From an uncultured Nitrososphaerota archaeon (GTDB lineage: Archaea; Thermoproteota; Nitrososphaeria; Nitrososphaerales; Gagatemarchaeaceae): 64,000 nt of DNA. Both the position numbers and the translations under genes were made by a program. A model generated the notes under the pieces. That model was not told the DNA's origin, searched no databases, and was given only the letters and a program-made list of their open reading frames with translations. The DNA is taken from the NCBI GenBank assembly GCA_963838925.1, contig CAWISW010000003.1:448001-512000 (forward strand), read 5' to 3'. Each line of letters opens with the position of its first letter. Position 1 is the stretch's first letter. This document shows, in pieces, positions 22,459 through 43,000 of the stretch.

Positions 22459-22566
22459 GGGCTCTCCCGTGGAACCCTGAGGCGCGGCGGGAACCACGCC
22501 GGCTGCGGATGCGCCGTCGGCGAGCAGGGCGAGAGAGTCCACATCCAGCCGATTTCCGGAGCCTAG
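22441..22566 (+). pseudogene. tes: 3'-terminal fragment of tetraether lipid synthase (radical SAM)
   Basis: KKLEDGLSRGTLRRGGNHAGCGCAVGEQGERVHIQPISGA*, near-identical to 41402-41512. Confidence 0.7.
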
Positions 22567-22689
22567 ACAGGAAAGAACGAACCTCGCCGAGGGACTTTCC
22601 GTTGGCCAGGCTAGGGTCAAGGCAATCTTTGGGCGTCTAGGCGGAAGAATCGGAATCTTATTTCAGCGAAGTAGCAAGAATGAGCGAAT

Positions 22690-23123: not shown

Positions 23124-23146
23124 TTGACAATTGCCTTTAAGCGCCA

Positions 23147-24481: not shown

Positions 24482-24530
24482 GAGTGACCACTGAACAAAG
24501 CATCCATATGGATCTCGATTAAAAATCGCC

Positions 24531-24947: not shown

Positions 24948-25095
24948 TCATCGGGTTAATTGTCGACGCGGGTATTTTGCCTTTCGAAGAGGCGCTCGAA
25001 GTCCTCTGAAGAGAAGGAATACATAACACGTTTGAATTATTCGCGGAGAGGATTTCTAAACCATAGCAATATACTCGTCCGCGAACGTTTCTAAA

Positions 25096-25773
25096 GTGAT
25101 GTCAGAATATCGACGACAACTCCTCACTGGGGTAGTCCTAGCAATACTACTCTCGGCACTTTTTGCGTTCGAATTGGAGTCGTACTTCTCACCTGCTAAG
25201 AGTAACGAACCCTCCCTAGCCAAATCCAGTTCCATAGATACAGATTTGGGACTCAATTTCACTTTGACCGCTAAACCTTCAAGTCTTCAAGAGGGAGATA
25301 ACGTGACGATTGGGGTGTATCTCTTCAACATACTTCCTTCGACTAACAACCTTACTTCTCCGACTTCAAATCTTTATTCGCTGGGGCCGTGTCCCACGAC
25401 TCTTCCGTTTTGGTTCGAAGTTATTCAGGGAAACTATGAGGCCGATAACATGTCTCAAGGGCAGCCGCTCGCATTGTGGCAGGCATACCCTTACTGCGCA
25501 AATAGCATTCCTGTCCAGAACTACTCGTTTGAAGTGCGCAGCGATAATGTAACTGTCGCACTTGCTACCACAACTCTTGGTGAGAAGCAAGTCATTTTTT
25601 CCGAATCTGCTTCCTACATCGACAGCTATTTTGGATCATGGGGAGTGCTGACCCATCCCGACTCGCGTTTCGCGTTGTTCCAACCTGGAGAGTACACGGT
25701 AGCGGCGGGAGACTCTTGGGGGCAAGAAGACATACTACATTTCCGAGTTGTGGCTACACGAACAAGCCCGTAG
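25096..25773 (+). CDS. Membrane-anchored extracellular protein
   Basis: N-terminal TM, Ig-like beta pattern, many N-x-S/T sequons, FQPGEYTVAAGDSWGQ. Confidence 0.7.
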   Translation: MMSEYRRQLLTGVVLAILLSALFAFELESYFSPAKSNEPSLAKSSSIDTDLGLNFTLTAKPSSLQEGDNVTIGVYLFNILPSTNNLTSPTSNLYSLGPCPTTLPFWFEVIQGNYEADNMSQGQPLALWQAYPYCANSIPVQNYSFEVRSDNVTVALATTTLGEKQVIFSESASYIDSYFGSWGVLTHPDSRFALFQPGEYTVAAGDSWGQEDILHFRVVATRTSP

Positions 25774-25898
25774 CCTCACCTCAGCATCGCACTCTTCTGC
25801 TTGTTCAAGGTAATACACGAGTGGCACCGCGACAAGATTCACCAAAAGTGCGGCTCCCGATTGAGGTGTAGATAGCTAAGAACGACAAGAAGCTCGAA
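25774..25898 (+). pseudogene. tes: Degraded tes fragment
   Basis: PHLSIALFCLFKVIHEWHRDKIHQKCG(frameshift)PIEV*IAKNDKKLE aligns with PDLRIIPFCSFNVIPEWYRDKIQQKYGLPIEAWEAKNGKKLE at 41288-41413. Confidence 0.7.
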
Positions 25899-25961
25899 AG
25901 GCAATTGCCTCGAACTAAGCTGAGGGTGGGTGCAGATATCCTAGCGCAATCTTGATTTGTA

Positions 25962-27059
25962 GTGCAATCCAAGCTGAAATGCGAGTCTCACCTCTCAACT
26001 AGTCGGAATGAAGGTGTGACCAATCTCGACCAATTTGTCGTCTATGAAACCAAGGGAGGTCCTTCTCATTACCTCCGCCTACGTGAACGCCTTTACAACT
26101 TTGGAAGAGAAGACATCATTGAGGCTCGAGTAGCAAGAACTTCAGCGCCAGAGAAAGAACTCCGTCTTTACACAAGTGCAAGCTACGCAGATCCCCACCT
26201 CAACGTCTCTCATCTGAATCCAGCTCCGCGCGAGTCATTCCGAATATTGTCTCTCAGGAAATTTGGCGTACCGCATTTTGTAGCGAACTTCAACCAGCAC
26301 AAGCCGAAAGCCTTTCGAAATATCACGCTCTCCTATTCCGATGGCATAGTCAACATGAAAGTCGAGAATTTGGTCGCAGTGATCAAGAATCCCAAGCTCA
26401 GCGCTCGCGGGCAAGGACCTATTCTTGAAGGAAGCATAATAGAAGGCACAAGACGCGGGAACATCCGAATCGCCCAAGAATCCGAATCTTTCAGTCTGCA
26501 CTTCGGGGACTATTCGACCAACCATCCCCGGATAGTTCACATGAAGGCTATCGAGTCTTACATCGAGGTCGGATACGTGCAGAGTTCGCACGAGTCTGAC
26601 TATCGCACGAGACGCGTTCCTGCTGTTTCCATCGGGCCCGCGAAAGGCAAATCCGAGGACGAAGTGAAGAACAGATTCACCGAGATAGACAGCAGCAACA
26701 TGACAAAGAAGGAGATAAGGGCTTGGATTGACACTGAAGGTAACATCTACTCGAGGGGTATGGACGGTAAATCTGGCCCTCAACTGGCTGTCACTCAGAA
26801 GCACAGGGAACCGTTGGATGTCTTTGCAAGGAGCGTTGTAGGGTTGGGAGTGAGGTGCAAAGTCTCGCGGGATGGGCATGCGTGTTACGTAGCCAAAATT
26901 ACCGACACCGAAGGAGTTGCCAAGATAATCAAAGAGGTTGGGCCGTTTCGAACTCCTCAGAAATGTGAACAGGTACGTCAGTTCGAGAAGATGTTGAAAA
27001 GAGAGAGAAAGGAAAGGAGACGAGTGATAGAAAGATCGAAGGCACTGTTGGACCTGTAG
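25962..27059 (+). CDS. Free-standing LAGLIDADG endonuclease with uncharacterised N-terminal domain
   Basis: EIRAWIDTEGNI..PQLAVTQK.REPL..F..LGV..YVAKIT..KII..V.PF..K is a single-motif LAGLIDADG pattern. Confidence 0.75.
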   Translation: MQSKLKCESHLSTSRNEGVTNLDQFVVYETKGGPSHYLRLRERLYNFGREDIIEARVARTSAPEKELRLYTSASYADPHLNVSHLNPAPRESFRILSLRKFGVPHFVANFNQHKPKAFRNITLSYSDGIVNMKVENLVAVIKNPKLSARGQGPILEGSIIEGTRRGNIRIAQESESFSLHFGDYSTNHPRIVHMKAIESYIEVGYVQSSHESDYRTRRVPAVSIGPAKGKSEDEVKNRFTEIDSSNMTKKEIRAWIDTEGNIYSRGMDGKSGPQLAVTQKHREPLDVFARSVVGLGVRCKVSRDGHACYVAKITDTEGVAKIIKEVGPFRTPQKCEQVRQFEKMLKRERKERRRVIERSKALLDL

Positions 27060-27091
27060 AGTTCTCCGTGGGCATTATCTTCGTGCCAAGC

Positions 27092-27099
27092 TTATAATA
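27092..27099 (+). promoter_or_regulatory. TATA-like box supplied by island A for kleisin-KITE genes
   Basis: TTATAATA about 40 nt upstream of ATG 27139. Confidence 0.45.
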
Positions 27100-27138
27100 C
27101 AAGTCGGTAAGCGCGGCTCATCATTAGGGCGATATGAG

Positions 27139-29150: not shown

Positions 29151-32072
29151 TCAGCTTACGAAGTACCTACGCCTCAGAGCCTCCCGCTCGCCCTCTATCA
29201 CGCAGTCGATGAGGTCTTGGCCGGTCTCCTTCCTCTTCTTCAGCAGGTTAGGGGCCTCCGAGAGCCTGATGCCCCTCCCCGCGATAACGAAGAGCGCGTC
29301 GTCCCCGAACTCGTTCTTGACCTGCGTCGACTTCTTCAACGCCTCTAGCACCTTCTGGGCCTTGCCGTGCATCTGGAGCCTACTCCTCGCCTTGAGCGTC
29401 GCGCCGAAGACCGCCTCGTAGGACTCGGTGGTGTAGCCTATCGTGTCCTTCCTCCCGCACCGGGGGCACCTCTCGGGTGAGCCGTCGCCCACCCTCCTGA
29501 GCTCGACGTACTCCCAGCAGTTGGTGCAGGCCGCGACCAGGAAGCTCTCGCGAATCCTCGCCTCGGTGGACTGGCGGATTATCGCCCTGAGCCTCTCGGG
29601 CGAGACAATCTCGCCCCTCCTGCTCACTTCCTCCAGGCCGATCCTCGCGATGGGCGAGGGCCCTGCCTCTGGCTCCAAGATCACTATGCCGATTTCCTTG
29701 CGGGCGATCTGCGAGATGATTGACTCCGCGGCCTCGGTGTCAAAGTCGTCGTGGAAGATGACGCTGAGCGCCTCGTCGTAGACGGGCGTCCCCCTCAGCG
29801 CCTCCATGAGCCCCGAGATCGAGACGCTCGCGTAGTCCGCCTCCCTCGCGATGGCTCCGCACTTCTTCGCGACGTGGATGAGGCGTCGCTTGAATATCCC
29901 CGACCGCTCCACGGCCGCCCGCGCGAGCTCCTTGATGTCCTTCCCGTAGAGGTCGCGGATGACGCTCTCCACCAGCTTGGGCGACGACTCGACCTCCAAG
30001 ATGATCCTGTAGGGGTCTTGGTGGACGGCCACCGACTGTCCCATCCGCTCGGAGATGATGTGGGCGACCACGCGGGCGAGGAGCCTGTTCACCTTGTGCC
30101 CGAACGTCGCTTGTATCACCACGAACTTATCCCATTTCTCTATGGTGATGAGCCTGTCCGAAGGAACGGCGAGGCCCAGGGACGTCTGCTCCTTCACCTC
30201 GCTCAATGACTCGAGGATCGCCCCTTCGTCCACGGGGTAGCGCTCGCGGAGGGACGCGACTACCGACTTCTCCCCTCTCCCCTCGCTGCCGAGGGCCTCT
30301 GCATACTCCCTCCTTATCGACCCGACCTCGAGGGCGACCGGGAGCGGGACGGGGATCTCGTCGCCGACCCAGCTCGGGACCGCTCCGGTCGGGTCCTCCT
30401 CTGGAGCGACGTAGACCTTGTTCTCGTATATCTCTAATATCTTCCAGCACCTCCCCGCCTCGACGAACTTCACGCCGATCTGCCCGTACTCGGACACGAA
30501 GGCCTCGTCCAGGACACCGATCGCCCGGTCGCCCTCGGCGATCACGACGTACTGCTTCTCGTCGGGGATCATCGAGAGGTTCTCGAAGTAGTATTCGAAG
30601 AGCGGCTTGAAGTCCTTGGCGCGCTTGACGATCCCGTCGTTCTCGGTGAAGAAGAGCAGGCGCGGGTACCTGTCGCGCATGTAGACCAGGTACTTGCCCA
30701 TCGTCTCGATGCTGAGGGTCGAGTACGCGTAGGTCTTCCTCAGGAGGGAGTACAGGTCGTCGAGCTTCCACGAGCTGCTCTCGATGAGGAGTCCTGCTAT
30801 CTGGTGTATCGCGGGGTCGGCGGCGTTCCGGAAGGGGAGGAGCGGCTCGAGCTCGCCGTGGAGGGATTTCCTGCAGAGGACCATGGCCTCGAGCGTGTCG
30901 TCCGAGTCCTGCGTGATTATCATCCCCTTCGATATCTGTCCTATGGAGTGGCCAGCCCTCCCGATGCGCTGGATGAGCCTCGTGACCTGACGAGGGGAGT
31001 TGTACTGTATGACGCAGTCGAGGAAGCCGATGTCGATGCCGAGCTCGAGACTGCTCGTGCAGATTACGCCGGACAGCTTCCCCTCCCTGAGGTTCCTCTC
31101 GGTCGCCTCGCGAGTGGCCCTCGACAGAGAGCTGTGGTGGATGCCTATGGGCAGCCTCTCGTTCCAGACCCTGAACCTGTTCGCGAGCGCCTCCGCCTCT
31201 GACCTGGTGTTCGTGAATATCAGCGTCGACCTGTTCTGGTCGACAGTGTCCCGAATGGTCCTGAGCCTAGCCGCCACCTCGGGGAACGTGAAGATGCTGT
31301 CGGCGAGCGCGATGTCCTCCCCCGTCGCCTTCGGCCTCACCACCTGGAGCTGGAGCATCTTCTCCACGGGCACCCTGACTATCTCGCACTCCCTTCCCTC
31401 TCCTACGAGGAACCTGGATATCGTCTCGGGGGAGCCGATCGTCGCCGAGAGCCCGATCATTTGGATCTCCTTCCCGACCACACGCTTCAGCCGCTCGAGC
31501 GCTATCGAGAGCTGGCTTCCTCGCTTGTCCTCGGCCAGCTCGTGGATCTCGTCGACGACGACCCACTTCAGCTTCATCAGACCGTCCTTTATCCTCCTTC
31601 CAGTGAGGAGTGCCTGTAGCGTCTCAGGCGTCGTGATCATTATGTCGGGCGGCACCATGCTCTGGCCTGCCCTCTCCTGAGCGCCGGTGTCGCCGTGCCT
31701 CACCCCCAGCCTGACGTCGAACCTCTTGCACCACCATTGCATCCTCTCGAGCATGTCCCTGTTGAGCGCCCTGAGCGGCGTGATGTAGAGGAGCTTGATC
31801 CCGCCCGTCCGGGCGAGGCCGTTCCTGATCATCTTGTCGAGTATGGGCAGGAACGCAGCCTCCGTCTTCCCGGTCCCCGTCGGAGCCATCAGCAGCGCGT
31901 TGCGGCCGTCCGCGACGAGGGGGACCATCTTCGACTGCGGGTCTGTGGGGTTGCTGAACCCCCTCTCCTCGAGCGCCTTCAGGAGGGGCGGGGAGAAGAG
32001 CCTCTGGAAGACGTTGCCCTGGTCACCACTTGGCTGGTTCTCGGTGAGACTCGCCTCAGGGGTGCCGGGCAA
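29151..32072 (-). CDS. lhr: Lhr-family SF2 helicase
   Basis: APTGTGKT, PLRALNRD, TTPETL, DEIH, SAT, TSSLELGIDIG, QRIGRAGH, PSW.G, C-terminal Zn finger. Confidence 0.92.
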   Translation of the reverse strand: MPGTPEASLTENQPSGDQGNVFQRLFSPPLLKALEERGFSNPTDPQSKMVPLVADGRNALLMAPTGTGKTEAAFLPILDKMIRNGLARTGGIKLLYITPLRALNRDMLERMQWWCKRFDVRLGVRHGDTGAQERAGQSMVPPDIMITTPETLQALLTGRRIKDGLMKLKWVVVDEIHELAEDKRGSQLSIALERLKRVVGKEIQMIGLSATIGSPETISRFLVGEGRECEIVRVPVEKMLQLQVVRPKATGEDIALADSIFTFPEVAARLRTIRDTVDQNRSTLIFTNTRSEAEALANRFRVWNERLPIGIHHSSLSRATREATERNLREGKLSGVICTSSLELGIDIGFLDCVIQYNSPRQVTRLIQRIGRAGHSIGQISKGMIITQDSDDTLEAMVLCRKSLHGELEPLLPFRNAADPAIHQIAGLLIESSSWKLDDLYSLLRKTYAYSTLSIETMGKYLVYMRDRYPRLLFFTENDGIVKRAKDFKPLFEYYFENLSMIPDEKQYVVIAEGDRAIGVLDEAFVSEYGQIGVKFVEAGRCWKILEIYENKVYVAPEEDPTGAVPSWVGDEIPVPLPVALEVGSIRREYAEALGSEGRGEKSVVASLRERYPVDEGAILESLSEVKEQTSLGLAVPSDRLITIEKWDKFVVIQATFGHKVNRLLARVVAHIISERMGQSVAVHQDPYRIILEVESSPKLVESVIRDLYGKDIKELARAAVERSGIFKRRLIHVAKKCGAIAREADYASVSISGLMEALRGTPVYDEALSVIFHDDFDTEAAESIISQIARKEIGIVILEPEAGPSPIARIGLEEVSRRGEIVSPERLRAIIRQSTEARIRESFLVAACTNCWEYVELRRVGDGSPERCPRCGRKDTIGYTTESYEAVFGATLKARSRLQMHGKAQKVLEALKKSTQVKNEFGDDALFVIAGRGIRLSEAPNLLKKRKETGQDLIDCVIEGEREALRRRYFVS

Positions 32073-32125
32073 CTGAAAACTTCAACCGCCTTCTCCGTCG
32101 CTTACCTAACTACGTTTCCCTTAGG

Positions 32126-33823
32126 TCAGAAGGCCGAAGTCTCGCCAGGCACCATGCAGACGGCCCCCTTTGACGAGGACGTGACGAGCTCCGCGTACTT
32201 TGCAAAGACTCCGTGCTTGTACTTGATCGGTCGGGGCTTCCAGGTCTTCCTCCTCTCCGCTAGCTCTTGGTCGGAGACCTCGACGTTGAGAGACCTCTTG
32301 GCGACGTCGATGGAGATGATGTCGCCGTCCTTCAGGAGTCCTATTGTTCCGCCGACCTGTGCTTCAGGCGCGATGTGCCCGATCATGAATCCGTGGGTGG
32401 CTCCGGAGAACCTCCCGTCGGTAAGAAGCGCTACCGAGTCCTTCAAACCCTGTCCCACCAACGCGGCGGTGACGACGAGCATCTCGCGCATGCCTGGCCC
32501 GCCCTTCGGCCCCTCGTAGCGGACGACGACAACGTCGCCCGGGTTGATCTTCTTCTCGATTATCGCTTGACGCGCATCCTCCTCCCTCTCGAAGACTCTC
32601 GCCGGTCCCCGATGGGCGTTCTTCGTGGAACCTGCGGTCTTGAGCACGCCGCCCTCGGTGGCCAGGTTCCCTCTGAGGACGGCGAACCCCCCGGACTTTC
32701 TAACCGGGTTCGATATGGGGTGGATGACGTCCTGGCCGGATGGGAGCTTGACGCCATTCAGCCTCTCCGCGAGGCTCTCGCCCGTGACGGTCCGCGCGTC
32801 GCCGTGGAGCAAGCCTGCATCGAGGAGCTGCCTCATGACCAGCTTGACGCCCCCCACTCTGTCGACGTCCGACATCACGTACTTGCCTGCCGGGCGCAGG
32901 TCCGCGAGCTCTGGCACGTTGACGCCGACCCTTTCGATGTCTTCGTAGGTCAGCTTCACTCCTGCCTCATATGCGATTGCTAGCAGGTGGAGCACCGCGT
33001 TGGTGGAACCGCCCATTCCTGCGACAACGGCGATTGCGTTCTCGAACGCGTTCTTCGTAAGGATGTCGCGCGGGCGAGTGTTGCTATCGAGCGCCTTCAT
33101 CACGCCCCATCCGCTCTCGTAAGCAATCTTCTTCCTCTGCTCGCTCGGTGCCACCGGAGCGGCGCTGTCGGGGACGGTGAGTCCGATCGCTTCGAGGGCT
33201 GATGCCATCGTGTTTGCGGTGAACATCCCGCCGCAGGCACCATAGGTGGGGCAGGCGTTGCACTCCAGGTCCTTGAGCTGTTGGACCGTCATTGTCCCCC
33301 TCGAAACCTGCCCCATCGCCTCGAAGACGTCTTGGATCGTGACCTCCTTCCCGTTGAACTCTCCGGGCGGGATGCTCCCACCGTAGAGGTAGACTCCGGG
33401 TATGTTGACGCGCGCCAAGGCCATCGCGGAGGCTGGCTGGGTCTTGTCGCAGCCGCCTATCGTAACCAGCCCGTCGAACTGATATCCGGCAGCACAGAGC
33501 TCAATCGAGTCGGCGATGACCTCGCGGCTGATTAGCGAGGCCTTCATCCCCTCGTGCCCCATCGCCATTGCGTCGTTGATTGCGATGCTATTGAACTCCA
33601 AGGGCGTGCCTCCTGCGTCTCTCACGCCCCTCTTCACCTCGTTGGCAAGTTCCCTTAGGTTATAGTTGCAGGGCTGGGCCTCGATCCATGTGTTAGCGAT
33701 GCCGATGATGGGCTTGTCAAAGTCCTCGTCGGTCAAGCCGATGGCGCGCAGCATCGCCCGCTGGGGGGTCCTCTCGATGCCCGCGGTGAGTTTGGCCGGG
33801 TGCCCCTTTGTTACACTTTGCAA
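32126..33823 (-). CDS. ilvD: Dihydroxy-acid dehydratase
   Basis: PCN, GCDKT.P, CGGMFTANTM, GGSTNAVLHL, GPKGGPGMREM, TDGRFSG. Confidence 0.97.
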   Translation of the reverse strand: MQSVTKGHPAKLTAGIERTPQRAMLRAIGLTDEDFDKPIIGIANTWIEAQPCNYNLRELANEVKRGVRDAGGTPLEFNSIAINDAMAMGHEGMKASLISREVIADSIELCAAGYQFDGLVTIGGCDKTQPASAMALARVNIPGVYLYGGSIPPGEFNGKEVTIQDVFEAMGQVSRGTMTVQQLKDLECNACPTYGACGGMFTANTMASALEAIGLTVPDSAAPVAPSEQRKKIAYESGWGVMKALDSNTRPRDILTKNAFENAIAVVAGMGGSTNAVLHLLAIAYEAGVKLTYEDIERVGVNVPELADLRPAGKYVMSDVDRVGGVKLVMRQLLDAGLLHGDARTVTGESLAERLNGVKLPSGQDVIHPISNPVRKSGGFAVLRGNLATEGGVLKTAGSTKNAHRGPARVFEREEDARQAIIEKKINPGDVVVVRYEGPKGGPGMREMLVVTAALVGQGLKDSVALLTDGRFSGATHGFMIGHIAPEAQVGGTIGLLKDGDIISIDVAKRSLNVEVSDQELAERRKTWKPRPIKYKHGVFAKYAELVTSSSKGAVCMVPGETSAF

Positions 33824-33854
33824 TAGAATCTGACCTGAAGCCGGCTCCGGAGTT

Positions 33855-34250
33855 TTATAAGCGTAATTGCGCGACGATGGCCAGTTCGGCAGAAGACCTG
33901 AACAGGTTGGCCATCACCGGCTCCAGTGAGCAAGTTACCGGGTTGACCTTCAGACGCAGCGTCTCCAACGTGGTCACTCCGAGCAGGAGTTCGTCTCCCG
34001 GCCCCACCATTACGGGAATCGCTCTTCTGGATGACCCATATTCGACTCTGGCGTCAGCGAGGCCGGCCTCCTTGACACTGCCGTCTGCGAGCTTGACGCG
34101 GATTACCTCGTTGGGAACGATTCCTAACCTTCTGGCGAGCGAAGGCGAAATCTTCGTGTAGAGGGCGCCGGTGTCAACCAGCATCTCGACATCCTCGTTG
34201 CCCTTCTCGCCTTGCAAGCGCACAGTCGCCCAAGTCTCGCCCATCTTCAT
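33855..34250 (-). CDS. Clan AA (retropepsin-like) aspartic protease
   Basis: LVDTGA, LADG, LLGVTTLE.L.L.VNP. Confidence 0.85.
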   Translation of the reverse strand: MKMGETWATVRLQGEKGNEDVEMLVDTGALYTKISPSLARRLGIVPNEVIRVKLADGSVKEAGLADARVEYGSSRRAIPVMVGPGDELLLGVTTLETLRLKVNPVTCSLEPVMANLFRSSAELAIVAQLRL

Positions 34251-34369
34251 TGGTCACCAGTGGAGACAGTCCGCAGATAAATATTAACGCCAATGAGTCG
34301 CGTCAGAGCCAAGTCGCCAGCCATCTCCCAAACTTATATCATGTGGCGCGGACGGCGCCTCCGGAAAAC

Positions 34370-35371
34370 ATGGCAAGGATGTGGCACGACGACGACGTCA
34401 GTTTGGGGCCGATAAAGGGCGAAACGATCGCTGTCATCGGCTACGGTATCCAAGGAGCGGCCCAGGCGAGCAACCTGAGGGACTCAGGGCTAAAGGTGGT
34501 CGTGGGGCTGCGCGAGGGAGGGAAGAGCTGGGCCAAGGCCAAGAAGGAGGGCCACAAGGTCATGACCGTCCCCGACGCGGTGAAGGCGGCGGATTTGGTC
34601 CATGTGCTGATTCCTGATATGCAACAAGCCCGCACCTTCAAGGAAGAGATTCGTCCGTATCTGAAGAAGGACATGGCTCTCTCCTTCTCGCATGGCGCAG
34701 CAATCCATTGGAAGTGGATAGTTCCCCCAAAAAACGTCGACGTAATCATGCTCGCTCCAAAAGCACCAGGGCAGAGAGTGAGAGAGCTTTACCTTGAAAA
34801 CTTTGGCACACCGGCGCTCGTTGCGGTCTACCAAGACGCAACTGGAAGAGCTTGGGACAGAATACTGGGGATGGCGAAGGGCGTCGGGACGACGAGGGCT
34901 GGCGTTCTGGAGACGACCTTCCGGGAGGAGACCGAGACGGATTGGTTCGGAGAACAAGTCGATCTCTGCGGCGGGTCGCACCGGATGATCTTGAGCGCAT
35001 TCGAGACTTTGGTCGAAGCAGGTTATTCCCCTGAAGGGGCTTACTTCGAAGTCCTGCACGAACTCAAGCTCATCGTGGACTTGATGCAAAAATACGGGAT
35101 TGCAGGCATGTATCGCAGAGTTAGCGAAACCGCGAGATATGGTGGTCTGACTAGGGGGCAAGTTGCCATCGGACCCGAGGTCAAGAAGAACATGAAGAAG
35201 GTCCTCAAGGAGATACAGAGCGGCAAGTTCGCGAAGGAATGGGTCAGCGTCTACGAGAAGGAGGGGGAGAAGAGCTTCGGCAAGTACATGGCTGAATTGG
35301 ACAAACACCAAATCGAGGTCGTGGGCAGGAAGCTGCGGAAGATGATGTGGCCCAACGACCAAGTGACGTAA
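34370..35371 (+). CDS. ilvC: Ketol-acid reductoisomerase; mosaic, recoded from about 34592
   Basis: IGYGIQG..QA.NLRDSG, LIPD, FSHG, APKAPG, ETETDWFGEQ, YFEVLHELKLIVDL, SETARYG; TATA-like CTTATAT upstream. Confidence 0.96.
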   Translation: MARMWHDDDVSLGPIKGETIAVIGYGIQGAAQASNLRDSGLKVVVGLREGGKSWAKAKKEGHKVMTVPDAVKAADLVHVLIPDMQQARTFKEEIRPYLKKDMALSFSHGAAIHWKWIVPPKNVDVIMLAPKAPGQRVRELYLENFGTPALVAVYQDATGRAWDRILGMAKGVGTTRAGVLETTFREETETDWFGEQVDLCGGSHRMILSAFETLVEAGYSPEGAYFEVLHELKLIVDLMQKYGIAGMYRRVSETARYGGLTRGQVAIGPEVKKNMKKVLKEIQSGKFAKEWVSVYEKEGEKSFGKYMAELDKHQIEVVGRKLRKMMWPNDQVT

Positions 35372-35401
35372 TTCTTCAGAAGCTCTCTAGCCAAAGACGC
35401 G

Positions 35402-37057
35402 CTATTCCTTTGGCCACACTTTTCGAAGGTGTAGCTCGCCTGTCGAGTTCGCACAATCCCAATCGAGTAAGGCCGCATAGGCCCCCTTGACCTTTCGAGT
35501 TTCCGGCCCAATATCGTAATTCTTGTACTGCCCCAACTGGATGCTTGCTTGTTTGAAGGCCGGTTCTAGGTAAGTCCACCACTTGTGCTCGAAGAAATAC
35601 AAGTCGCTCGAGGATTCTCGCCGCATCAAGCTGTCTGGACCAGGATACGTCGACCCCATCTGCCATTGGCCTTCTGAGCTGGGATGTCTCCGCACCTCTA
35701 TCCAGCCAGCATGAGACAAAATAGCGGGGTTAATCTCCTCGGCCACCTTGCCTTTCTCAGCGATTATTTCGTATTTGCTTTCGGCATGCGAAAGACGGGA
35801 GTTTACGTGATTCTGCACCGACGAATCCACCTCAAACGAAAAGCGATTCTCCGTCCCCTCTTCCTTCGAAAGCAGCCTCACCTTGTCGATAATCAGGCCA
35901 GTCTTGAACTGCTCAATTTCCTGACGAAGAGAGGCTCTCGCCGCAGTCACTTCTCTTTCCTTGGGGACGAAGACAAACTTCAAACGATCTCGAGTTGCGA
36001 TGAATCTGCTGATTTTTCCGGTCCCGTCATACGCTGCCCTCGAATGTTCGCCATCGAACCAGAACCTGAATTGCCTTTTTCCCTCTTGAAACCGTGCAAC
36101 CAGAAGTACTTCGAGGCTGTAAGAATCCAGATGAGAATCTTTGAAGGGGAAAAAGTGGCCATCGACCTTTAGGCCCAACGTATTTTCTCGGAAGCTCAGT
36201 CTAGCATTTTTCATGTCTTCCTGTCTATGACTATTGAAGTCTTTGATGAACTGTTCTTGGGAATATGCCCTGACAGTCAGCAGTTCAAACAAATCCCCCT
36301 GCTTTCCCCCGAGCTTGCCTACACGGAGGTGAACAATTTTGCTCTCTCTATTGAGCTGCATTTCCCCGAAGACTTTCCTTGTCAGGTTCTCAGACGCGGA
36401 AAGGCTTCGTATTCCCAGTTCTAGTATTCCTCTCCTGTCTTTCGAAAAGCGCTCGTGAGGCAAGCCGGCCGATTCCAACGCAGCTTGTCTAAAGGTCAGC
36501 TGAGGCCAACCACGGATGGTCTCAACTCTGAATGACTTTCTTTGCTCGATGGAGATGAGTACGATCTTGTAGCTTTCGCGAGCCTTGAGATTCTGCCTGT
36601 ACTCGAAGGGAGCATACAAGAAGATACATTTTCTCTTTGCTCCGATGTGCATCGCATCGAAGCTCCCGACGCCTTCGATTCTACCCTTGATGCTGTATAC
36701 CCTGCCCACCCGTAGATGGAAACCAGCTGCTTTCTCGAACGCAGACTGCAATATTCGAAACCTGAAATTTCCGTCAACAGTTGCCATTCTAGATGCTCTG
36801 GCAGTAAAGATTCCAAGGTATTGGTCTCTGCTCTTTGAAGTGCTTCCGACGGCGATAGCGGATTCATGCTCAGGGGTGTGCCTACTCATTCCTTCATCTG
36901 AATCAGGCGCGGATTTCACAGCCGCAGATTGGGATCCAGTGTCGGGGCGAACCGAAGAAATCGAGGGTTCGACGGGAGGGACCGGAGACAGCGCAGCATC
37001 TGAGACTCGTATTCCCAACTTTGGAGTCGCAGTTATGGACGAGATAACATCGGCCAT
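35402..37057 (-). CDS. Putative PD-(D/E)XK endonuclease with N-terminal domain shared with the LAGLIDADG protein
   Basis: KGKVAEE..GPDSL..YFFEHKW..A..QLGQY catalytic pattern; true start may be downstream of 37057. Confidence 0.68.
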   Translation of the reverse strand: MADVISSITATPKLGIRVSDAALSPVPPVEPSISSVRPDTGSQSAAVKSAPDSDEGMSRHTPEHESAIAVGSTSKSRDQYLGIFTARASRMATVDGNFRFRILQSAFEKAAGFHLRVGRVYSIKGRIEGVGSFDAMHIGAKRKCIFLYAPFEYRQNLKARESYKIVLISIEQRKSFRVETIRGWPQLTFRQAALESAGLPHERFSKDRRGILELGIRSLSASENLTRKVFGEMQLNRESKIVHLRVGKLGGKQGDLFELLTVRAYSQEQFIKDFNSHRQEDMKNARLSFRENTLGLKVDGHFFPFKDSHLDSYSLEVLLVARFQEGKRQFRFWFDGEHSRAAYDGTGKISRFIATRDRLKFVFVPKEREVTAARASLRQEIEQFKTGLIIDKVRLLSKEEGTENRFSFEVDSSVQNHVNSRLSHAESKYEIIAEKGKVAEEINPAILSHAGWIEVRRHPSSEGQWQMGSTYPGPDSLMRRESSSDLYFFEHKWWTYLEPAFKQASIQLGQYKNYDIGPETRKVKGAYAALLDWDCANSTGELHLRKVWPKE

Positions 37058-37203
37058 CGTAACGGGGTAACGGAGACAGGGCGGGGTAGAAGGAAAACGG
37101 AGGTGAGGCAGGAAGGAGGATAGGAGAACACAACGGGGCAGTGAAGGTCGGAGACGAAAAATGAACGTGAGATGATACGTTACCTTCGCATAAAAGCATA
37201 TGT

Positions 37204-37315
37204 TTGACTAGTCTCCACTTAACGCAACGTCAACAATCGCGTTGACATCAGAGAGTCTCATCGTGTCAAATGTCTGATAGTCAATTCGCAAAATCATGTC
37301 AAGTAGATAGTTGAC
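37204..37315. promoter_or_regulatory. GTCAA-N8-TTGAC palindrome array
   Basis: Full sites at 37229-37246 and 37298-37315; half sites at 37204, 37265 and 37280. Confidence 0.5.
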
Positions 37316-37423
37316 TCTGGGAAAAGCGAATCTTGCAATGAATTGCTATTCTTGGAACTAGAATTTCCAGCTCTATGATTGGCTAAAAGCCGTTTGTGTG
37401 GACCTCGCTCTCATGACGACTCA

Positions 37424-37470
37424 TAGCAAAGAGGAGGAATTCCGCAGGTAGCCGATTATGGGGACCAAGA
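37424..37470 (+). pseudogene. tes: Heavily degraded tes 3'-terminal remnant
   Basis: GAGGAATTCCGCAGGTAGCCGATT versus GAGGAAGTCCACATCCAGCCGATT (41489-41512), 19/24 identical; the following sequence resembles 22574-22600. Confidence 0.45.
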
Positions 37471-37557
37471 GAACAAGCATTCGCCCCGGGTGATTTCTTG
37501 AGGGTAGAGGATATTGAGGGGAAACAATTCGCCAATAGGAGAGAAGAATCGGCGCAA

Positions 37558-37990
37558 TTGCCAGATTAGTTAGATAAGGCATAAATAATCGCGACTACGT
37601 TAATGCAAATAGGTCTCATGACTATTGGCAATCTCGTGCCAATGACGTTTTCCTACTCCGCATGGGGCACAGCGGATGAAGATCGAAAGAACAGAGGAAA
37701 GCGAAGGTCGCACATCGAGGTTCAGGCATCGATTCTCAGGGCGCTCGCTTCCGAGTATCTCACGATAAACCAGCTTGCAATCCGCGTGAACCTGAACAGG
37801 GTTCTCGCCAAGACCTACGTAAAAGAGCTGTCACAGAAAGGACGGATCGAGAGCAAGAAGATGAAAGGGCTGGAGAGATACTCCGCCACGCAGAGCGGAG
37901 TCGCCTGGCTGAAGCGCTTCGAGACCTTGGTCCGTGATTAGAGATACGGATTCTAGTTACCGGATGATAGTTTCTGCCTGCTTTAACTAG
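37558..37990 (+). repeat. Approx. 430-bp wHTH module, copy 2
   Basis: Aligns with 22690-23123. Confidence 0.9.
37618..37941 (+). CDS. Archaeal winged-helix transcription regulator
   Basis: Near-identical core to 22751-23089 (SEYLTINQLAIRVNLNRVLAK). Confidence 0.8.
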   Translation: MTIGNLVPMTFSYSAWGTADEDRKNRGKRRSHIEVQASILRALASEYLTINQLAIRVNLNRVLAKTYVKELSQKGRIESKKMKGLERYSATQSGVAWLKRFETLVRD

Positions 37991-38029
37991 GCGCGCTGAA
38001 ATCTATACGTCTGAGTATGTGACTGCTTA

Positions 38030-39760
38030 ATGGTCGTCTATGATCGGAAAGCGCTGACCGCAAAAACTGGTTTGAACGCCGCAATCACACTTTCCATCCT
38101 CTCTCTGTTGATTCTCTCAAGAGGACTTCCGAGCCAAAGTCTCGTGTTTGGCTACCCTTCAACCGCATCATCCGTGCCTCCGAAGCCGGTTGTTCTCGGG
38201 GCGGCCACGGGCTTTGGGGCTGTTGCTGGTCTGGGAGTCAATAACAGCGGTGATTCGAAAGTTGCGGGAAATCTTGGTTCTACCGGCCCAATCACAGGAT
38301 TTCCGCCTGGGAACGTGACGGGTACAATACACTCTGACGACTCGCTCGCTCATCAAGCAACTGACGATTTGGCAAGGTCGTACGGTGCACTCTCAGAGGA
38401 TTCATGCAACGTGGAACTGGCAAGCCAGAACTTGGCGGGACTAGATCTCCAACCAGGAGTATACTGCTATTCCTCGGGGGCATTATTGTCAGGAACGCTC
38501 ACGCTCAACCCAAATCATGATGCTAACGCCATGTATGTCTTCGAGATAGGTGGCGGGTTAACCCTATCGAATGACTCCCAGATTACAATGATAGGTGGCG
38601 ACGGATGCAACGTCTTTTGGGAAATTAGTGGCACCACGTTCATCGGTGCTCAAACCACGTTCGCCGGAAGTATACTATCAGCGGGCAATATCATGATGGG
38701 TGCTGGCGCGAACATCACGGGGGCAGCAATGTCCGAACACGGTTCTTTGGTGATGCATTCCGATTCTGTCGGTGCCCAGTGTTCTAGTTACATGTGGAAG
38801 CATCAGGTAGCGGCCACCAGCGCAGGGACAACAGGTTGCTTCCAGGTCTCCTATCCTAGTGCAGAGTGGGTGAGCGAACCTTGTCTGTACCATGTTGGCC
38901 AACCGCATACCGTTGGCCCTCCAGTCGGAGGTTGCGACACTGAGACCAGCACAGGGACGTGCGATTATGCGGGAAAGAGCAGTGGAACTCTGATCAACCA
39001 TGCCGAGGACAGCTTCCTAACTGGAGGTGGTTACAGCGTTAATGGAATCAGTGGCTCCTGCTCAGCTGGCACTCGGGAATATGACCAATCAAGCGGAGAC
39101 AACTGCGCATACTCAATCCAATTGAATTCGAATAGATGGGTGATTTCGGGGATATGTGGGACGGGAACCAATGCTTGCTGGGGTTGGGAGCAATTCGTGT
39201 TTACGAGTGATTACACTCAGGCTAGTTACTACGTAGACGTGGAACTGGAGGTAATCAATTACGAGAACTACTACGGCTCTGGAAGTTGCAGCAACCTCGG
39301 AACAGACTGGGGTTATGTTGGCGCGGGGAACTGTGGAACCTTCGAGATCAAGTTGGGGGTGACCAGCGCCGCCGAAGTCGATCCGGCGAATTCTCCATCA
39401 GCGTTCAGCTCTCTCTACATAGACGCGGCGGTAGCCTCTAGCGGTAACGACCTCGCTAACGTCTGCGACAGTTCACAATGTTGGGAGAACACCGTGCCCG
39501 ATAATCTGTTTCCAACGGGGTACAACCTCGTCAACGAATGGACCTACGAAGAATACAATGTATTTGGATCAGGCGGAGGCGACGAAGCCATCTGGAATAC
39601 TGGAACCAACATGACCATTTACGGGAACATGTATGACTCTAGCGGCAGCTTAATTTCGGACTCGTGTACTCAGTTCAGCGACACGGGCGAGAGTAGCAAT
39701 CTCGGAGCCGGCACATGCACCGCGGGTACTGGAACCTGGCATTTCACAGAAACGGCGTGA
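38030..39760 (+). CDS. Secreted DUF3494 ice-binding-like domain fused to a Cys-rich thermopsin-like domain
   Basis: Signal/TM; V.LGAA..F..AG, ITGFPPG..TGTIH, L.PGVYC, GTLTL, NVFW, F.GSIL (DUF3494); then YSIQLNSN, WEQFV, VFGSGGG, DTGESSNL. Confidence 0.75.
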   Translation: MVVYDRKALTAKTGLNAAITLSILSLLILSRGLPSQSLVFGYPSTASSVPPKPVVLGAATGFGAVAGLGVNNSGDSKVAGNLGSTGPITGFPPGNVTGTIHSDDSLAHQATDDLARSYGALSEDSCNVELASQNLAGLDLQPGVYCYSSGALLSGTLTLNPNHDANAMYVFEIGGGLTLSNDSQITMIGGDGCNVFWEISGTTFIGAQTTFAGSILSAGNIMMGAGANITGAAMSEHGSLVMHSDSVGAQCSSYMWKHQVAATSAGTTGCFQVSYPSAEWVSEPCLYHVGQPHTVGPPVGGCDTETSTGTCDYAGKSSGTLINHAEDSFLTGGGYSVNGISGSCSAGTREYDQSSGDNCAYSIQLNSNRWVISGICGTGTNACWGWEQFVFTSDYTQASYYVDVELEVINYENYYGSGSCSNLGTDWGYVGAGNCGTFEIKLGVTSAAEVDPANSPSAFSSLYIDAAVASSGNDLANVCDSSQCWENTVPDNLFPTGYNLVNEWTYEEYNVFGSGGGDEAIWNTGTNMTIYGNMYDSSGSLISDSCTQFSDTGESSNLGAGTCTAGTGTWHFTETA

Positions 39761-39909
39761 GAAGTCATTGATTGATGAATGGACGACCTGGATGCCCAGG
39801 CAACCGATGCGGGTGGCATTTCGGATTCGGTCGAAGATCCTTCAATATCACTTCAGCAAAGTCCCAGTGCATCTCTTATTAGAAACCTGAGCCCGTCTTC
39901 TATCTTGGG

Positions 39910-41196
39910 TTGGAGTTCTTGTCAGGGCATCGAAACCATTCTGAGTCGAATCGCACATGGATTGTGGTCGCGGGTACTGTCGCGGCGGGCCTCATCGCCT
40001 CGGGTCTGCTACTTGCGCCTTCGCTAGGAGCTGTACGAACGGTGACGCAAACGGTTACGTCGACATCGACAGAGACGCTGACGTCGATTTCCTCTTCTCT
40101 AAATAATTCTACTTCCCCAACCCACATCGGTGCAAGTATCCTCGCGAACATTACTGTCGGGACTGATCCTCAAACCCCTCTATTCGATTCAATGAATGGG
40201 GACCTATACGTGCCTAATCATAGCTCCGACGATATCTCCGTCATCTCGGGAGCGACTAACTCATTAGTAGCTACGGTGAAAGTTGGCTCTAGCCCCACCA
40301 CACCTGCACTGGACCCGACCAATGGGCAAGTATACGTCCCGAACGAAGGCTCAGAGAGTGTCTCCGTAATTTCTGGAGTAACAAACGTCGTTATCGCGAC
40401 GATACGAGTAGGTTCTGATCCCCGTACTCCCGTCTTCGATCCCACCAACGACGACATGTACGTCGCCGACCGGCTTTCGGGCGAAGCCTCGGTGATATCT
40501 GGGACCACAAACACTGTTGTCTCAACCATAACCTTCGCGGCTAATCCGCTCCCTCCTGCCTTCGACCAAATCACTCGCGACCTTTACTTTCCCGTCTCGA
40601 ATGGCACAATGTATGACACCATTGCCGTCGTATCAGGTGACACCAACACGCTTGTAGCAAGTGTGCTAGTGGGGCCTGTCCCGTGGACACCTGCCTTCAA
40701 TCCTCTAAACGGAGACATCTACGTTCCAGTATCGGGCCTCCCGGGGCGGCCGAATGACACGGTTTCGGTGATAGACGGAGAGACCAACAATGTGGTCGCG
40801 ACGGACGAGGTCGGTACTTCCCCGTACACGCCAGTCGTAGACTTGGCAAATGGAGAAATCTTCGTTCCTCATCTTAATGCAGATAACATTCCAATCTCAA
40901 TCCTTTCCGGGAAAACGAATTCGGTTGTCGGATTTTTGGCGATTGGCAATGGCTCGCAAACGACGTTGTTTGATCATGTTTCCGGAAACCTTTGGGTTTT
41001 CGGATTTGCTGCAGGCTCAATCACAATGTTAGTCATGGGACAGGACAACTTCGTCGCCACAATCGGGTTACCAAACGGCGAAGGCCGGGGCCTTGGGATT
41101 GGTGTGTCGACACCAGCGATTGACACGACAAACGGAGACATCTATGTACCCGCTGGAGCCTGCATCCTGGTTATTGGGCCTTCAACCGGGGACTGA
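39910..41196 (+). CDS. Membrane-anchored YVTN/YncE-like beta-propeller protein
   Basis: TM plus Thr/Ser linker, then about seven repeats of VG..P.TP..D..NG..YVPN..S..VSVISG.TN.VVAT. Confidence 0.85.
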   Translation: MEFLSGHRNHSESNRTWIVVAGTVAAGLIASGLLLAPSLGAVRTVTQTVTSTSTETLTSISSSLNNSTSPTHIGASILANITVGTDPQTPLFDSMNGDLYVPNHSSDDISVISGATNSLVATVKVGSSPTTPALDPTNGQVYVPNEGSESVSVISGVTNVVIATIRVGSDPRTPVFDPTNDDMYVADRLSGEASVISGTTNTVVSTITFAANPLPPAFDQITRDLYFPVSNGTMYDTIAVVSGDTNTLVASVLVGPVPWTPAFNPLNGDIYVPVSGLPGRPNDTVSVIDGETNNVVATDEVGTSPYTPVVDLANGEIFVPHLNADNIPISILSGKTNSVVGFLAIGNGSQTTLFDHVSGNLWVFGFAAGSITMLVMGQDNFVATIGLPNGEGRGLGIGVSTPAIDTTNGDIYVPAGACILVIGPSTGD

Positions 41197-41236
41197 CGGC
41201 AAAAACGACTCTTCCGGGTATAGAGGCAACTGGAAT

Positions 41237-41513
41237 TACAATCAGGACGAGGAGCGCCTACAGCGCTGCGACATCCACTACCTCACTCCTGACCTGAGGA
41301 TCATCCCCTTCTGCAGCTTCAACGTCATCCCCGAATGGTACAGGGACAAGATCCAGCAAAAGTATGGACTGCCAATCGAGGCCTGGGAAGCGAAGAACGG
41401 CAAGAAGCTCGAGGACGGCCTCTACCGTGGGACCTTGAGGCGGGGCGGCCACCACGCCGGCTGCGGCTGCGCAATAGGCGAGCAGGGCGAGGAAGTCCAC
41501 ATCCAGCCGATTA
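41237..41513 (+). pseudogene. tes: 3' fragment of tetraether lipid synthase (GDGT-MAS, radical SAM)
   Basis: YNQDEERLQRCDIHYLTPDLRIIPFCSFNVIPEWYRDKIQQKY matches the recalled Tes C-terminal motif (YNxDxERxxRCxIHYxTPDxRIIPFC); host-like codons; no start or radical SAM core. Confidence 0.78.
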
Positions 41514-41570
41514 ACGGACTTAATAGGCCGTCAAAAGCAAGTCAAAAAGATAAACAGATGGGAATCGTAG

Positions 41571-41879
41571 CTGAAGCTCATCGTCGACCTGGTCCAGAAA
41601 TACGGGATCTCCGGGATGTATCGCAGAGTGAGCGAGACCGCGAGATACGGCGGCCTGACGCGAGGGCAGCGGGCCATCGGCCCTGAGGTGAAGAAGGGTA
41701 TGAAGAAGGACCTCAAGGAGATCCAGGACGGGACCTTCGCGAAGGAGTGGGTCAGCGTTTACAACAAGGAGGGCCAAAAGTCATTCCAGAAGTACATGGA
41801 CAAGCTGGAAGCCCACCAGATCGAGAAGGTGGGGAAGAAACTCCGGAAGATGATGTGGCCCAACGACCAGGTAACCTGA
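41571..41879 (+). pseudogene. ilvC: Displaced 3' stub of ilvC (102 codons)
   Basis: LKLIVDL..WPNDQVT*; 16 aa differences from the intact copy; no 5' part. Confidence 0.92.
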
Positions 41880-41885
41880 CCTGGC

Positions 41886-42452
41886 TCACGCGCCGCTGAT
41901 CGGCGCCTGGACCTCGAGGTTGACAAAGTTCCACGTCTCGCTCGAGATGAGCCACTCTCCGTTGACATGCGCGTACGTTGCGCTTGTGGCCACCTGTCCC
42001 ATTATCGATTGGACATTCTGGCCCCCGCCAAGAAGGTTGAGGGTTCCGTTTACAGTGGCTCCACCACCAACGACCTGGACCGCGTAGGTGACGTTGCTGA
42101 TGGAGAAGCTCGGGAACTTCGTGAAGAACCGAGAGTAGAAGTTGCTGATGAGGCTCGGAGAACTGACGGTTGTCACACCCGGCGTCCCCCCAAGCCCTCT
42201 CGTCTCGCCGACCCACGAAAGCGTCGCGTTGGGTGCGAAGTCGCCCACGAGAAGGGTAGTGTTCGCGGAGGTGAAGTCCACAAGGTGCCGGGCGAACGCC
42301 CCGTGGACCTGTGACGCTGTGGCGGCCGCCTGGGCGTTGTTGTAAAGTGTAAACGCGAAGACACCGCCCAGCACCACGAGCGTGACGACAACCACCGCCA
42401 CCACTCGCCGCAGCCTCCCACGGCCTGCCGAACCCCCGGCGCCCGTGCTCAT
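41886..42452 (-). CDS. Membrane-anchored NTF2/SnoaL-like domain protein
   Basis: N-terminal TM; FAPNATLSW, YAHVNGEWLISSETW pattern. Confidence 0.6.
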   Translation of the reverse strand: MSTGAGGSAGRGRLRRVVAVVVVTLVVLGGVFAFTLYNNAQAAATASQVHGAFARHLVDFTSANTTLLVGDFAPNATLSWVGETRGLGGTPGVTTVSSPSLISNFYSRFFTKFPSFSISNVTYAVQVVGGGATVNGTLNLLGGGQNVQSIMGQVATSATYAHVNGEWLISSETWNFVNLEVQAPISGA

Positions 42453-42539
42453 CCGCGACGGAGACGCCTCGCTTCTTATTATGGGTGAGGCCGAGAACCC
42501 TTTATTACACTACGGACCCTTTCCCCTACGGCGATTCAT

Positions 42540-42770
42540 GTGATATCCGCCTGCATCCTGATAAGGACGGAGCGAGGGAGGATGGAAGACCTCGCGAAGA
42601 AGCTCAAGCAGATACCCGAGATCAAGAGGGCCTTCCCAGTCTTGGGCCGCTACGACATCGTCGCTGACGTGGAGGCGGCGAACGGGAAGGCGCTCGCTCG
42701 CGCAGTGACGAAGACGATGAGGCTAGGCGGAATCGTGTTCACGGAGACGCTCCCGGAGGTCGAGGAGTGA
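42540..42770 (+). CDS. Stand-alone Lrp/AsnC ligand-binding (RAM) domain
   Basis: ACILIRTE, VLGRYDIVADVE, TETL. Confidence 0.85.
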   Translation: MISACILIRTERGRMEDLAKKLKQIPEIKRAFPVLGRYDIVADVEAANGKALARAVTKTMRLGGIVFTETLPEVEE

Positions 42771-43000
42771 CCGTGGGGCTCAACGCCTGCATCCTGATCA
42801 AGACCACCCCGCTGGAGGCGAACGACGTCCTCCTAAAGTCGAGGAAGATCAAGGGCGTGAGGAAGGCCTTCTTGGGCTACGGCCGGTACGACATCATCGC
42901 GTTCGGAGAGGCCCCTGACTACTCAGAGCTTCGGAAGATCTCGGAGCGCATCAACGAGATAGCCGGCGTCCGGAGCACCGAGACCCTAGTAGAAGGCTAG
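42767..43000 (+). CDS. Stand-alone Lrp/AsnC ligand-binding (RAM) domain
   Basis: ACILIKT, YGRYDIIA, I.GVRSTETL; overlaps the previous gene. Confidence 0.85.
   Translation: MTVGLNACILIKTTPLEANDVLLKSRKIKGVRKAFLGYGRYDIIAFGEAPDYSELRKISERINEIAGVRSTETLVEG

Follow-up and report, generated by a model that had tools for sequence, protein, structure and literature searches.

A nuclease-associated genomic island behind a mosaic ilvC gene of a soil archaeon

How can a genomic island come to lie directly behind a conserved metabolic gene, with a second copy of the end of this gene several kilobases farther on? This question is raised by the ilvC locus of an uncultured Nitrososphaerota archaeon. The window analyzed here is a stretch of 64,000 nucleotides (nt) of its genome (labeled G000; G000:C3:448001-512000); genomes of relatives are labeled in the same way, with L numbers for their loci and P numbers for metagenomic protein homologs. 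In the window, ilvC, the ketol-acid reductoisomerase gene, is followed by island B, an approximately 7-kb foreign, decayed and composite genomic island lodged tail-to-tail behind the gene. Islands of this kind appear to constitute an apparently undescribed group travelling with a DNA-cutting enzyme, not with an integrase, and in this island family the hallmark gene is invariably found next to a conserved host gene, at its 3' end. The explanation that we favor, tentatively and with somewhat less than even confidence, is that the nuclease would start a homing-like insertion by recombination, with conversion tracts differing in length, and that transfer between relatives would take place via homologous recombination.

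The working copy of ilvC (34370-35371, plus strand) encodes 333 amino acids (aa). Its product is identified as ketol-acid reductoisomerase by matches to the Pfam domains KARI_N (3.7e-67) and KARI_C (1.3e-55), covering residues 15-326 of 333, and ungapped 333-aa IlvC matches are found in 20 relatives, G009 being an exception due to a frameshift. In the latter (L026, G009:C3 ~7206-8205), residues 1-299 and 285-333 are encoded in different frames, which is due either to a frameshift or to faulty assembly close to the 3' end.

Comparison of the window by blastn with the island-free genomes G017 and G022 defines the inserted DNA, missing from both, as 35368-42490. It includes the displaced 3' end of ilvC, further referred to as the stub (41571-41879, plus strand; the last 102 codons and the stop, in an open frame), and a variable 188-aa gene (41886-42452, minus strand) between the stub and position 42491, where synteny with G017 and G022 resumes. 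Among ten relatives tested, homologs of the 188-aa gene are present only in G020 (59% aa identity) and G009 (46%). The GC content falls from ~0.62 to 0.44-0.56 right behind ilvC and remains low until ~41600, with 0.58-0.61 at the stub end. The stub matches only codons 232-333 of ilvC (35063-35371), with 16 differences in 102 residues, exactly as counted in the initial annotation, and 68 in 306 bases. Also in line with this annotation, no further copy of the ilvC middle exists in G000, the working gene and the stub being the only two ilvC matches genome-wide. A block of 26 nt is identical in the working gene (35336-35361, plus strand) and the stub (41844-41869); situated at the extreme 3' end of ilvC, it is a candidate crossover point.

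The working gene is a mosaic. A change in its codon usage had been placed at 34592, and the underlying counts of A/T-ending codons are exact: 11 of the 74 codons before this position, none of them among the last 24, and 42 of the next 91. The zone rich in such codons is internal (60 of 157 in codons 75-231; 7 of the last 65), and because of this a single change-point test places the switch at codon 268 (permutation p ~0.01). As proof of foreign origin, codon usage is weakened by AT-biased private changes of G000 in neighboring genes: in the flanking genes compared (window 29151-33823), GC>AT substitutions prevail as well, at 61:6 in ilvD and 69:20 in a gene encoding a 973-aa protein. Codon usage is therefore weak evidence, and the case is carried by trees. 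In G017, the bias is much weaker in ilvD (13:11) and the count in the 973-aa gene is lower (33:6), the G000 branch being about two times longer.

We call type 1 the ilvC allele of the nearest island-free relatives G022, G006 and G018, also represented by the 5' part and middle of the G020 gene and by G009. The 5' segment of the G000 gene (34370-34634, plus strand) belongs to this type, nt 1-222 being 87-90% identical to G022, G006, G018 and G020. It is followed by a divergent tract (type 2; 34638-35371, plus strand), common to the island-free G017 and nearest to G008, with nucleotide identity of 69-76% to type 1, 84-87% to G017 and 78-83% to G008. If G000 is compared to type 1 by segments, the identity is 69-71% in the middle (nt 223-693) and 67-76% at the 3' end. 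According to 130 informative sites, the tree breakpoint lies between nt 265 and 269 (window 34634-34638), ~45 nt to the right of 34592: the last type-1 site is nt 265, and from nt 269 onward the type-2 states are unbroken in G000 and G017 alike.

The trees bear out the pattern that had been predicted for the segments of the gene. The 5' part and the nearest relatives are joined in a clade comprising seven genomes (support 98/97), the stub groups with type-1 3' ends (93/97), and the two other segments of the working gene, its middle and its 3' end, fall outside the type-1 clades, with G017 and G008. Approximately unbiased (AU) tests reject both the joining of G000 and G017 to type 1 (p = 0.0004 for the middle, p = 0.02 for the 3' end) and the joining of the stub to the working-copy type (p = 0.011). 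The reverse situation considered in the initial annotation, a uniform native ilvC with a foreign stub, is not observed: the working gene is mosaic and the stub is of type 1. In the tree of 7.4 kb of flanking genes, G000 is inside a supported type-1 clade (98/100) and G008 is outside; therefore, the tract in the working gene is discordant with its surroundings.

With the 3' ends of G022, G006 and G018 the stub shares 88-89.5% identity, and with the working copy, 77.8%. Its private changes, six in number, are all synonymous, the frame is open, and neutral decay is not seen. The congener G020 has a similar arrangement at the same place, where ilvC is followed by a homolog of the hallmark protein (538 aa, 5 nt past the stop), by cargo different from that of G000 (a Laminin_G protein and a DUF3800 protein), and by a stub. 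Both stubs start at the identical base (CTGAAGCTCATCGT...), with unrelated sequence on the left of each. The nucleases of the two genomes are 35% identical, and the replacement 3' ends, 66.7%. The stubs differ at 30 bases in synonymous codons and at 13 in nonsynonymous ones, and, as these differences are mostly synonymous, both stubs have been inside working genes for most of their divergence and were displaced separately. As the G020 stub begins at the same nucleotide, the breakpoint is site-specific and is very unlikely to be a product of random erosion. A cut had been proposed within codons ~75-230; the start common to the two stubs suggests instead a fixed point at the boundary of codons 230 and 231. 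The bases around this junction differ in the island-bearing working copies. The foreign tract begins upstream of it, by ~428 nt in G000 and by ~27 nt in G020, where the foreign part of the working gene has 55% GC at third codon positions and 71-73% identity.

The relative timing of the tract and the island follows from G017. In this genome, the island, the stub and the 188-aa gene are all missing, and the spacer after ilvC matches that of G022; still, it carries the same ilvC mosaic with the same breakpoint as G000. The identity between G000 and G017 is 85-87% in the flanks; the tract, as diverged as these flanks, is therefore about as old as the split of G000 and G017. The six synonymous changes and the open frame of the stub, on the other hand, imply that it left a working gene recently. 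Hence the recoded middle of ilvC and the island are probably traces of two separate events. In the first one, old, nt 269-999 of ilvC would have been replaced by a G008-like allele in the G000/G017 lineage; in the second one, recent, the island would have arrived together with a type-1 stub from another host, with the left crossover probably within the 26-nt block at 35336-35361 and the right crossover beyond the stub. One contig from soil agrees exactly with the working copy as far as 35361, after which it has a native-type gene end and island-free downstream sequence; therefore, island-free alleles of this type co-occur in soil. Stubs move with islands, as is seen from a fresh stub of tes (the tetraether lipid synthase gene) inside island B and an ilvC 3' fragment at an unrelated G018 locus. 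The latter (L024, G018:C7:95465-95610) corresponds to residues ~240-277, is 79% identical to the G000 stub and is surrounded by an unrelated low-GC region with helix-turn-helix (HTH) and secreted-protein genes.

The initial annotation envisaged one cut repaired by double crossover. The mosaic, the tree pattern and the non-eroded stub agree with it, but it is not the simplest history, given the tract without an island in G017 and the freshness of the stub. In its single-event form, a single cut in the type-1 ilvC of G000 was repaired from a donor with the island, co-conversion extended to the left up to ~nt 269, and the gene's own 3' end became the stub. We consider this scenario unlikely, although a number of observations suit it: the 5' part and the stub, both of type 1, show nearly equal identity to G022, G006 and G018 (89-90%), the stub is fresh, as a recent event would leave it, and starts at the site common with G020, and the 188-aa gene could be native, as in G009 and G020. 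The difficulty is again G017, where the tract and the breakpoint (nt 265/269) are present with neither island nor stub. Moreover, the tract divergence of 13-16% equals that of the flanks, so that the donor must be as distant from G017 as G000 is. Finally, the region upstream points to common descent: a retropepsin-like aspartyl-protease gene (33855-34250), located between ilvD and ilvC, is present, out of 16 relatives tested, in G017 alone besides G000 (82% nt identity).

The candidate agent of insertion is the 551-aa hallmark protein of island B, encoded at 35402-37057 (minus strand), tail-to-tail with ilvC and 31 nt from its stop. The protein has no match in Pfam or NCBIfam. It consists of a disordered leader (residues 1-78), beta-rich DNA-binding-like domains and a predicted C-terminal PD-(D/E)xK nuclease domain. 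In the alignment of 14 family members, E440, H458, G473, D475 and E490 are invariant (14 of 14), K492 is present in at least 90% of sequences, and K492 and W493 are near-invariant; the motif E ... (P)D ... (D/E)xK is formed by E440, D475, E490 and K492. The AlphaFold2 (AF2) model of residues 385-551 (pLDDT 86.9, pTM 0.84) has the alpha-beta-beta-beta-alpha-beta core fold, at moderate scores. Among the matches listed (VIA-align, Foldseek), this domain resembles mostly nucleases of the restriction-endonuclease fold (Z 4.2-7.4), such as Hjc, lambda-type exonucleases, tRNA splicing endonuclease, I-Ssp6803I, AddB/AdnB and Cas4. The prediction of a PD-(D/E)xK nuclease domain at the C-terminus is thus supported by motif and model. 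The N-terminal half is beta-rich, and one of its units resembles 2glw (probability 1.00, TM 0.57), which we take to be an AbrB-like swapped-hairpin barrel. Searching the PDB with a sequence profile yielded two chance-level matches and none relevant, whole-protein Foldseek yielded nothing at E <= 0.001, and the best score in the ESM Atlas was 0.84, providing leads only. The family is rare (278 cluster representatives among 1.84 billion proteins); it is present in 24 of 97 genomes of the host's taxonomic family, and was not found in 160 genomes sampled from other families of the order. In full-text literature searches, neither islands of this kind nor the protein family were found to have been described.

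Recombinase genes were looked for in four islands, which lie at two different target genes. In island B, the Pfam search covered 37 open frames with a minimum length of 60 aa and matched none of them to an integrase, resolvase or transposase, and no such genes were found among the open reading frames (ORFs) scanned in the islands of G020 (3 ORFs), G009 (11) and G015 (10). The recombinase gene expected in an integrase-mediated element is thus absent from the scanned frames, as is the TnsB-type DDE transposase characteristic of Tn7, and the only gene common to the four islands is the hallmark nuclease.

These data bear on the possibility that an integrase inserted the island at an attachment (att) site in the 3' part of ilvC and was later lost, or acted in trans, and that homologous recombination then blurred the junctions, the nuclease being a cargo, DNA-transfer or defense protein. 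We deem this quite improbable. Island B is indeed clearly decayed and composite, and in fuller elements the nuclease is a neighbor of a HerA/CedD-like ATPase, both facts being compatible with such a history. However, besides the lack of an integrase in all four islands, the repeats are 309 bp long at 78% identity, unlike a short identical core, and the sole identical block, of 26 nt, is at the far end. In G000 as well as in G020, the foreign tract begins upstream of the position at which the stub starts. This is not predicted by conservative att recombination, which would make foreign sequence start at or after the start of the duplicate, and this is observed in neither island-bearing genome. 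Also, the nuclease, the only shared gene, occupies the target-adjacent position usual for integrases. As for the other alternative of the initial annotation, later erosion of the stub, it is hardly credible. In this model, integration would have duplicated ilvC from ~codon 90 on, and the stub would afterwards have been shortened by deletion to 102 codons. The island is degraded and the tes fragment lies directly against the stub, but the independent G020 stub has exactly the same first nucleotide and is preceded by unrelated sequence, the G000 stub shows no decay at all, and the mostly synonymous divergence of the two argues against one trimmed ancestor.

Genes of the family recur next to the same targets. 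Next to ilvC, they are found 5-31 nt from the stop in G000 and G020, and in G015 only a companion gene separates them; in addition, the contig of the metagenomic homolog P0007 continues into antisense ilvC. The G015 module (L100, G015:C8, 10713-17539) has three genes, encoding a 1002-aa membrane HerA/DUF87 ATPase with a CedD-like match below the cut-off, the 1073-aa family nuclease and the 214-aa companion, whose stop overlaps that of ilvC; no stub is present anywhere in the G015 genome. The same order of three genes is found in G121, and the nucleases of G006 and G214 also adjoin long membrane or DUF87 ATPase ORFs. The second target is the gene of an Obg-like GTPase, with which family genes are arranged tail-to-tail in G009 and G214, representing two genera. 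The 9.2-kb island of G009 (L067, G009:C3, 1365-10530), for which empty sites exist in G000 and G022, replaces the last four codons of the GTPase gene (TSHRG for TAKRG), leaves a degenerate native end at the far junction, and carries genes for a PIN protein, a thermopsin-like protease and a methyltransferase. No long GTPase stub was detected by tblastn in G009 or G214. Scans for more ilvC-linked islands yielded one irrelevant locus in public genome contigs and none in metagenome and viral contigs.

Several other candidate landing sites were considered. Transfer RNAs were rejected as targets of the family members, as ARAGORN identified one tRNA in ten loci, at no repeat. A 159-bp repeat in L050, considered as a host gene end, turned out to be a duplicated HicAB-like piece, and short repeats after secreted-protein genes in L047 and L052 are uninterpretable. 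In G214 (L049), an inverted second copy of the 51 C-terminal residues encoded by a PriX-domain primase gene (2390-2542) lies 12 kb away (14592-14744, 69% aa identity), and this copy adjoins the usual neighbor of this gene, which suggests a stub plus an inversion.

We infer that the nuclease cuts ilvC and that this cut starts the insertion. In the favored, homing-like scenario, the nuclease would cut island-free alleles at a fixed site, which in ilvC would be the codon 230/231 boundary; repair from an island-bearing template would then bring in the island and a replacement 3' end, and the resident 3' end would stay downstream as the stub. Conversion tracts of variable length would turn the working gene into a mosaic, and the whole structure of gene end, island and stub could also move between relatives by homologous recombination on the two ilvC arms.

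A number of observations weigh against this scenario. The structural matches of the nuclease domain are moderate (best Z 7.4; Foldseek E > 0.001), and G000 itself has one nuclease-domain profile match plus a weak second whole-protein match, the latter in another island of the window, island A. As the nuclease adjoins a membrane HerA/CedD-like ATPase in fuller elements, it could serve DNA transfer and not targeting. The upstream tract of G020 is short (27 nt), the G015 and GTPase cases lack a long stub, so that the ilvC codon-230 site is not general, and other islands of G000, at tes, lack the family nuclease. No joint of an excising or circularizing island is seen in contigs of three soil runs (X1-X3; short, 2-6x depth). 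The order of events and the donors are also inferred: local flanks leave the sisterhood of G000 and G017 weak (51/45; alternative p = 0.27), and hence polarity and order are uncertain. Alternatively, the type-1 gene of G000 itself was recently hit by a G017-like donor, which would explain the same data provided that this donor and G000 are equally distant from G017.

Island A (~22414-27100) is located between SMC-like and ScpA-like genes and comprises a winged-helix paralog (22751-23089), secreted-protein cargo, tes fragments and a 365-aa protein. The latter (25962-27059) combines the middle domain of the nuclease family (BLASTP 1e-8) with a weakly LAGLIDADG-like end (E 0.0086, below the Pfam cut-off). 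This combination fits the interchange of nuclease domains on a common scaffold, as would be expected of homing-type enzymes. A 565-aa homolog is found at the same site in G020. Two overlapping tes 3' fragments lie at the two ends of island A (22414-22560, corresponding to Tes residues 518-557, and 25774-25934, residues 480-533).

In total, G000 contains at least six tes 3'-end fragments and no intact tes in its 87%-complete assembly; fragments are found at C2:54-452, C2:4621-4881, C2:7994-8086 and C3:441346-441597, and at 41238-41530 in the window. The last one (plus strand), which belongs to island B, covers Tes residues ~463-556, is not decayed, and is 98% identical at the protein level to the 557-aa Tes P0018; in soil contigs, an intact tes continues upstream of 41237. 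Contig C2 opens inside a diverged tes end (62.5% aa identity), followed by a low-GC island and a stub with 95% identity, native-like, an architecture similar to that of ilvC.

The rest of island B is made up of a winged-helix protein gene (37603-37941, plus strand; Pfam HTH_45, 1.3e-8) and two cargo genes, encoding a secreted ice-binding-like protein (38030-39760, plus strand; Pfam Ice_binding, 2.7e-38) and a YVTN beta-propeller repeat protein (39910-41196, plus strand; NCBIfam TIGR02276, 3.7e-24). The winged-helix gene and its paralog in island A are parts of a DNA repeat (22676-23123 and 37544-37990, 82.6% identity). The Rfam scan of 33000-43000 yielded a sub-threshold snoRNA match only.

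The hallmark gene begins with a conserved 150-bp leader block (36925-37075, minus strand), comprising 18 nt upstream of the ATG and codons 1-44. The block has sharp ends and is 86-93% identical in G009, G022, G006 and G020, with ~82-85% in flanking genes, and 73% identical in G001. The genes joined to it downstream are unrelated and encode family nucleases, LAGLIDADG_3 proteins (in metagenomes) and HTH proteins. The variable columns of the block are not biased toward third positions (15, 19 and 22 of 45, 44 and 44), and the block contains an inverted repeat, CGAACC-N12-GGTTCG. The leader may be a site of recombination or exchange; as a structured RNA it was rejected (RNA fold z-score 0.10).

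Of the known systems, free-standing homing endonucleases and integrase-borne elements of Thaumarchaeota come closest. Conversion tracts in phage homing vary in length. In intronless homing of T4-like phages (mobE, Seg proteins), as outlined in PMC2790892, the nuclease gene is located beside its target, and a break in the allele lacking it leads to one-way conversion together with flanking DNA. By analogy, the nuclease gene of the islands also lies beside its presumed target. Unlike the phage systems, the islands take along kilobases of cargo, supply a replacement end of the host gene and leave a stub; they also differ in the host, an archaeal chromosome, and in the enzyme, a new multi-domain protein family with predicted cleavage. 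PD-(D/E)-XK is listed in PMC6083498 as one of six recognized homing-endonuclease families. I-Ssp6803I and Hjc belong to the same fold class as the hallmark domain (VIA-align Z 6.0 for 2ost, 6.2 for 1gef and 5.8 for 1ob8, over 92-95 residues), but the profile search of the PDB revealed no sequence-level relation, and these proteins are small and single-domain, whereas the hallmark protein adds ~300 residues of beta-rich domains and the disordered leader.

In the account of PMC6563490, 14 of 68 integrase-borne elements of Thaumarchaeota reside in 3'-distal parts of protein-coding genes, and they share with the islands the target (the 3' end of a conserved gene), the restoration of the reading frame and the variable cargo. 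In contrast to them, the islands have yielded no tyrosine or serine recombinase and no casposase, the repeat is long and diverged and not a short exact att site, and the junctions appear displaced by conversion. In Tn7, TnsA is a PD-(D/E)xK nuclease, and TnsD directs insertion just past glmS. The islands resemble Tn7-like transposons in the "safe-haven" landing at the end of an essential conserved gene and in the core module with a PD-(D/E)xK nuclease and an ATPase, and differ from them in the lack of a DDE transposase in the scanned frames and ORFs and in that insertion replaces a part of the gene.

A bolder version of the favored scenario, which we regard as possible but rather doubtful, makes the islands integrase-free "home-and-rescue" elements. 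According to it, a natural selfish element would use a so far undescribed homing nuclease (AbrB-like barrels plus PD-(D/E)xK) to cut conserved essential genes, ilvC and the Obg-like GTPase gene, would repair them with its own diverged 3' end, and would carry kilobases of cargo. Perhaps tes would also be a target, via LAGLIDADG-using relatives, and the complete form would in addition encode the HerA/CedD-like DNA translocase, allowing spread from cell to cell. The element would leave its footprints as mosaic alleles of housekeeping genes and as travelling stubs of gene ends. A similar principle is used in synthetic cleave-and-rescue and home-and-rescue drives (ClvR), described in the bioRxiv preprint 10.1101/2021.07.03.451005 as a nuclease acting against an essential gene combined with a diverged rescue copy. 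Unlike ClvR, engineered with Cas9 in insects, the islands would be a natural, protein-guided, archaeal analog, in which immunity provided by the replacement end is hypothetical.

If the nuclease drives insertion, large cargo would be able to enter archaeal chromosomes without an integrase or a transposase, and the logic of cutting an essential gene and bringing its repair, so far known mainly from engineered gene drives, would be a natural one. This would also explain the mosaic structure that recombination has given to core metabolic genes, ilvC among them, in these soil archaea and why intact-looking gene-end fragments are scattered over their genomes, and would give a function to a lineage-restricted family of 278 cluster representatives without a Pfam or NCBIfam model. 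Even on a cautious reading, the locus is a clean natural case of repeated, site-specific island turnover, the steps of which can be dated.

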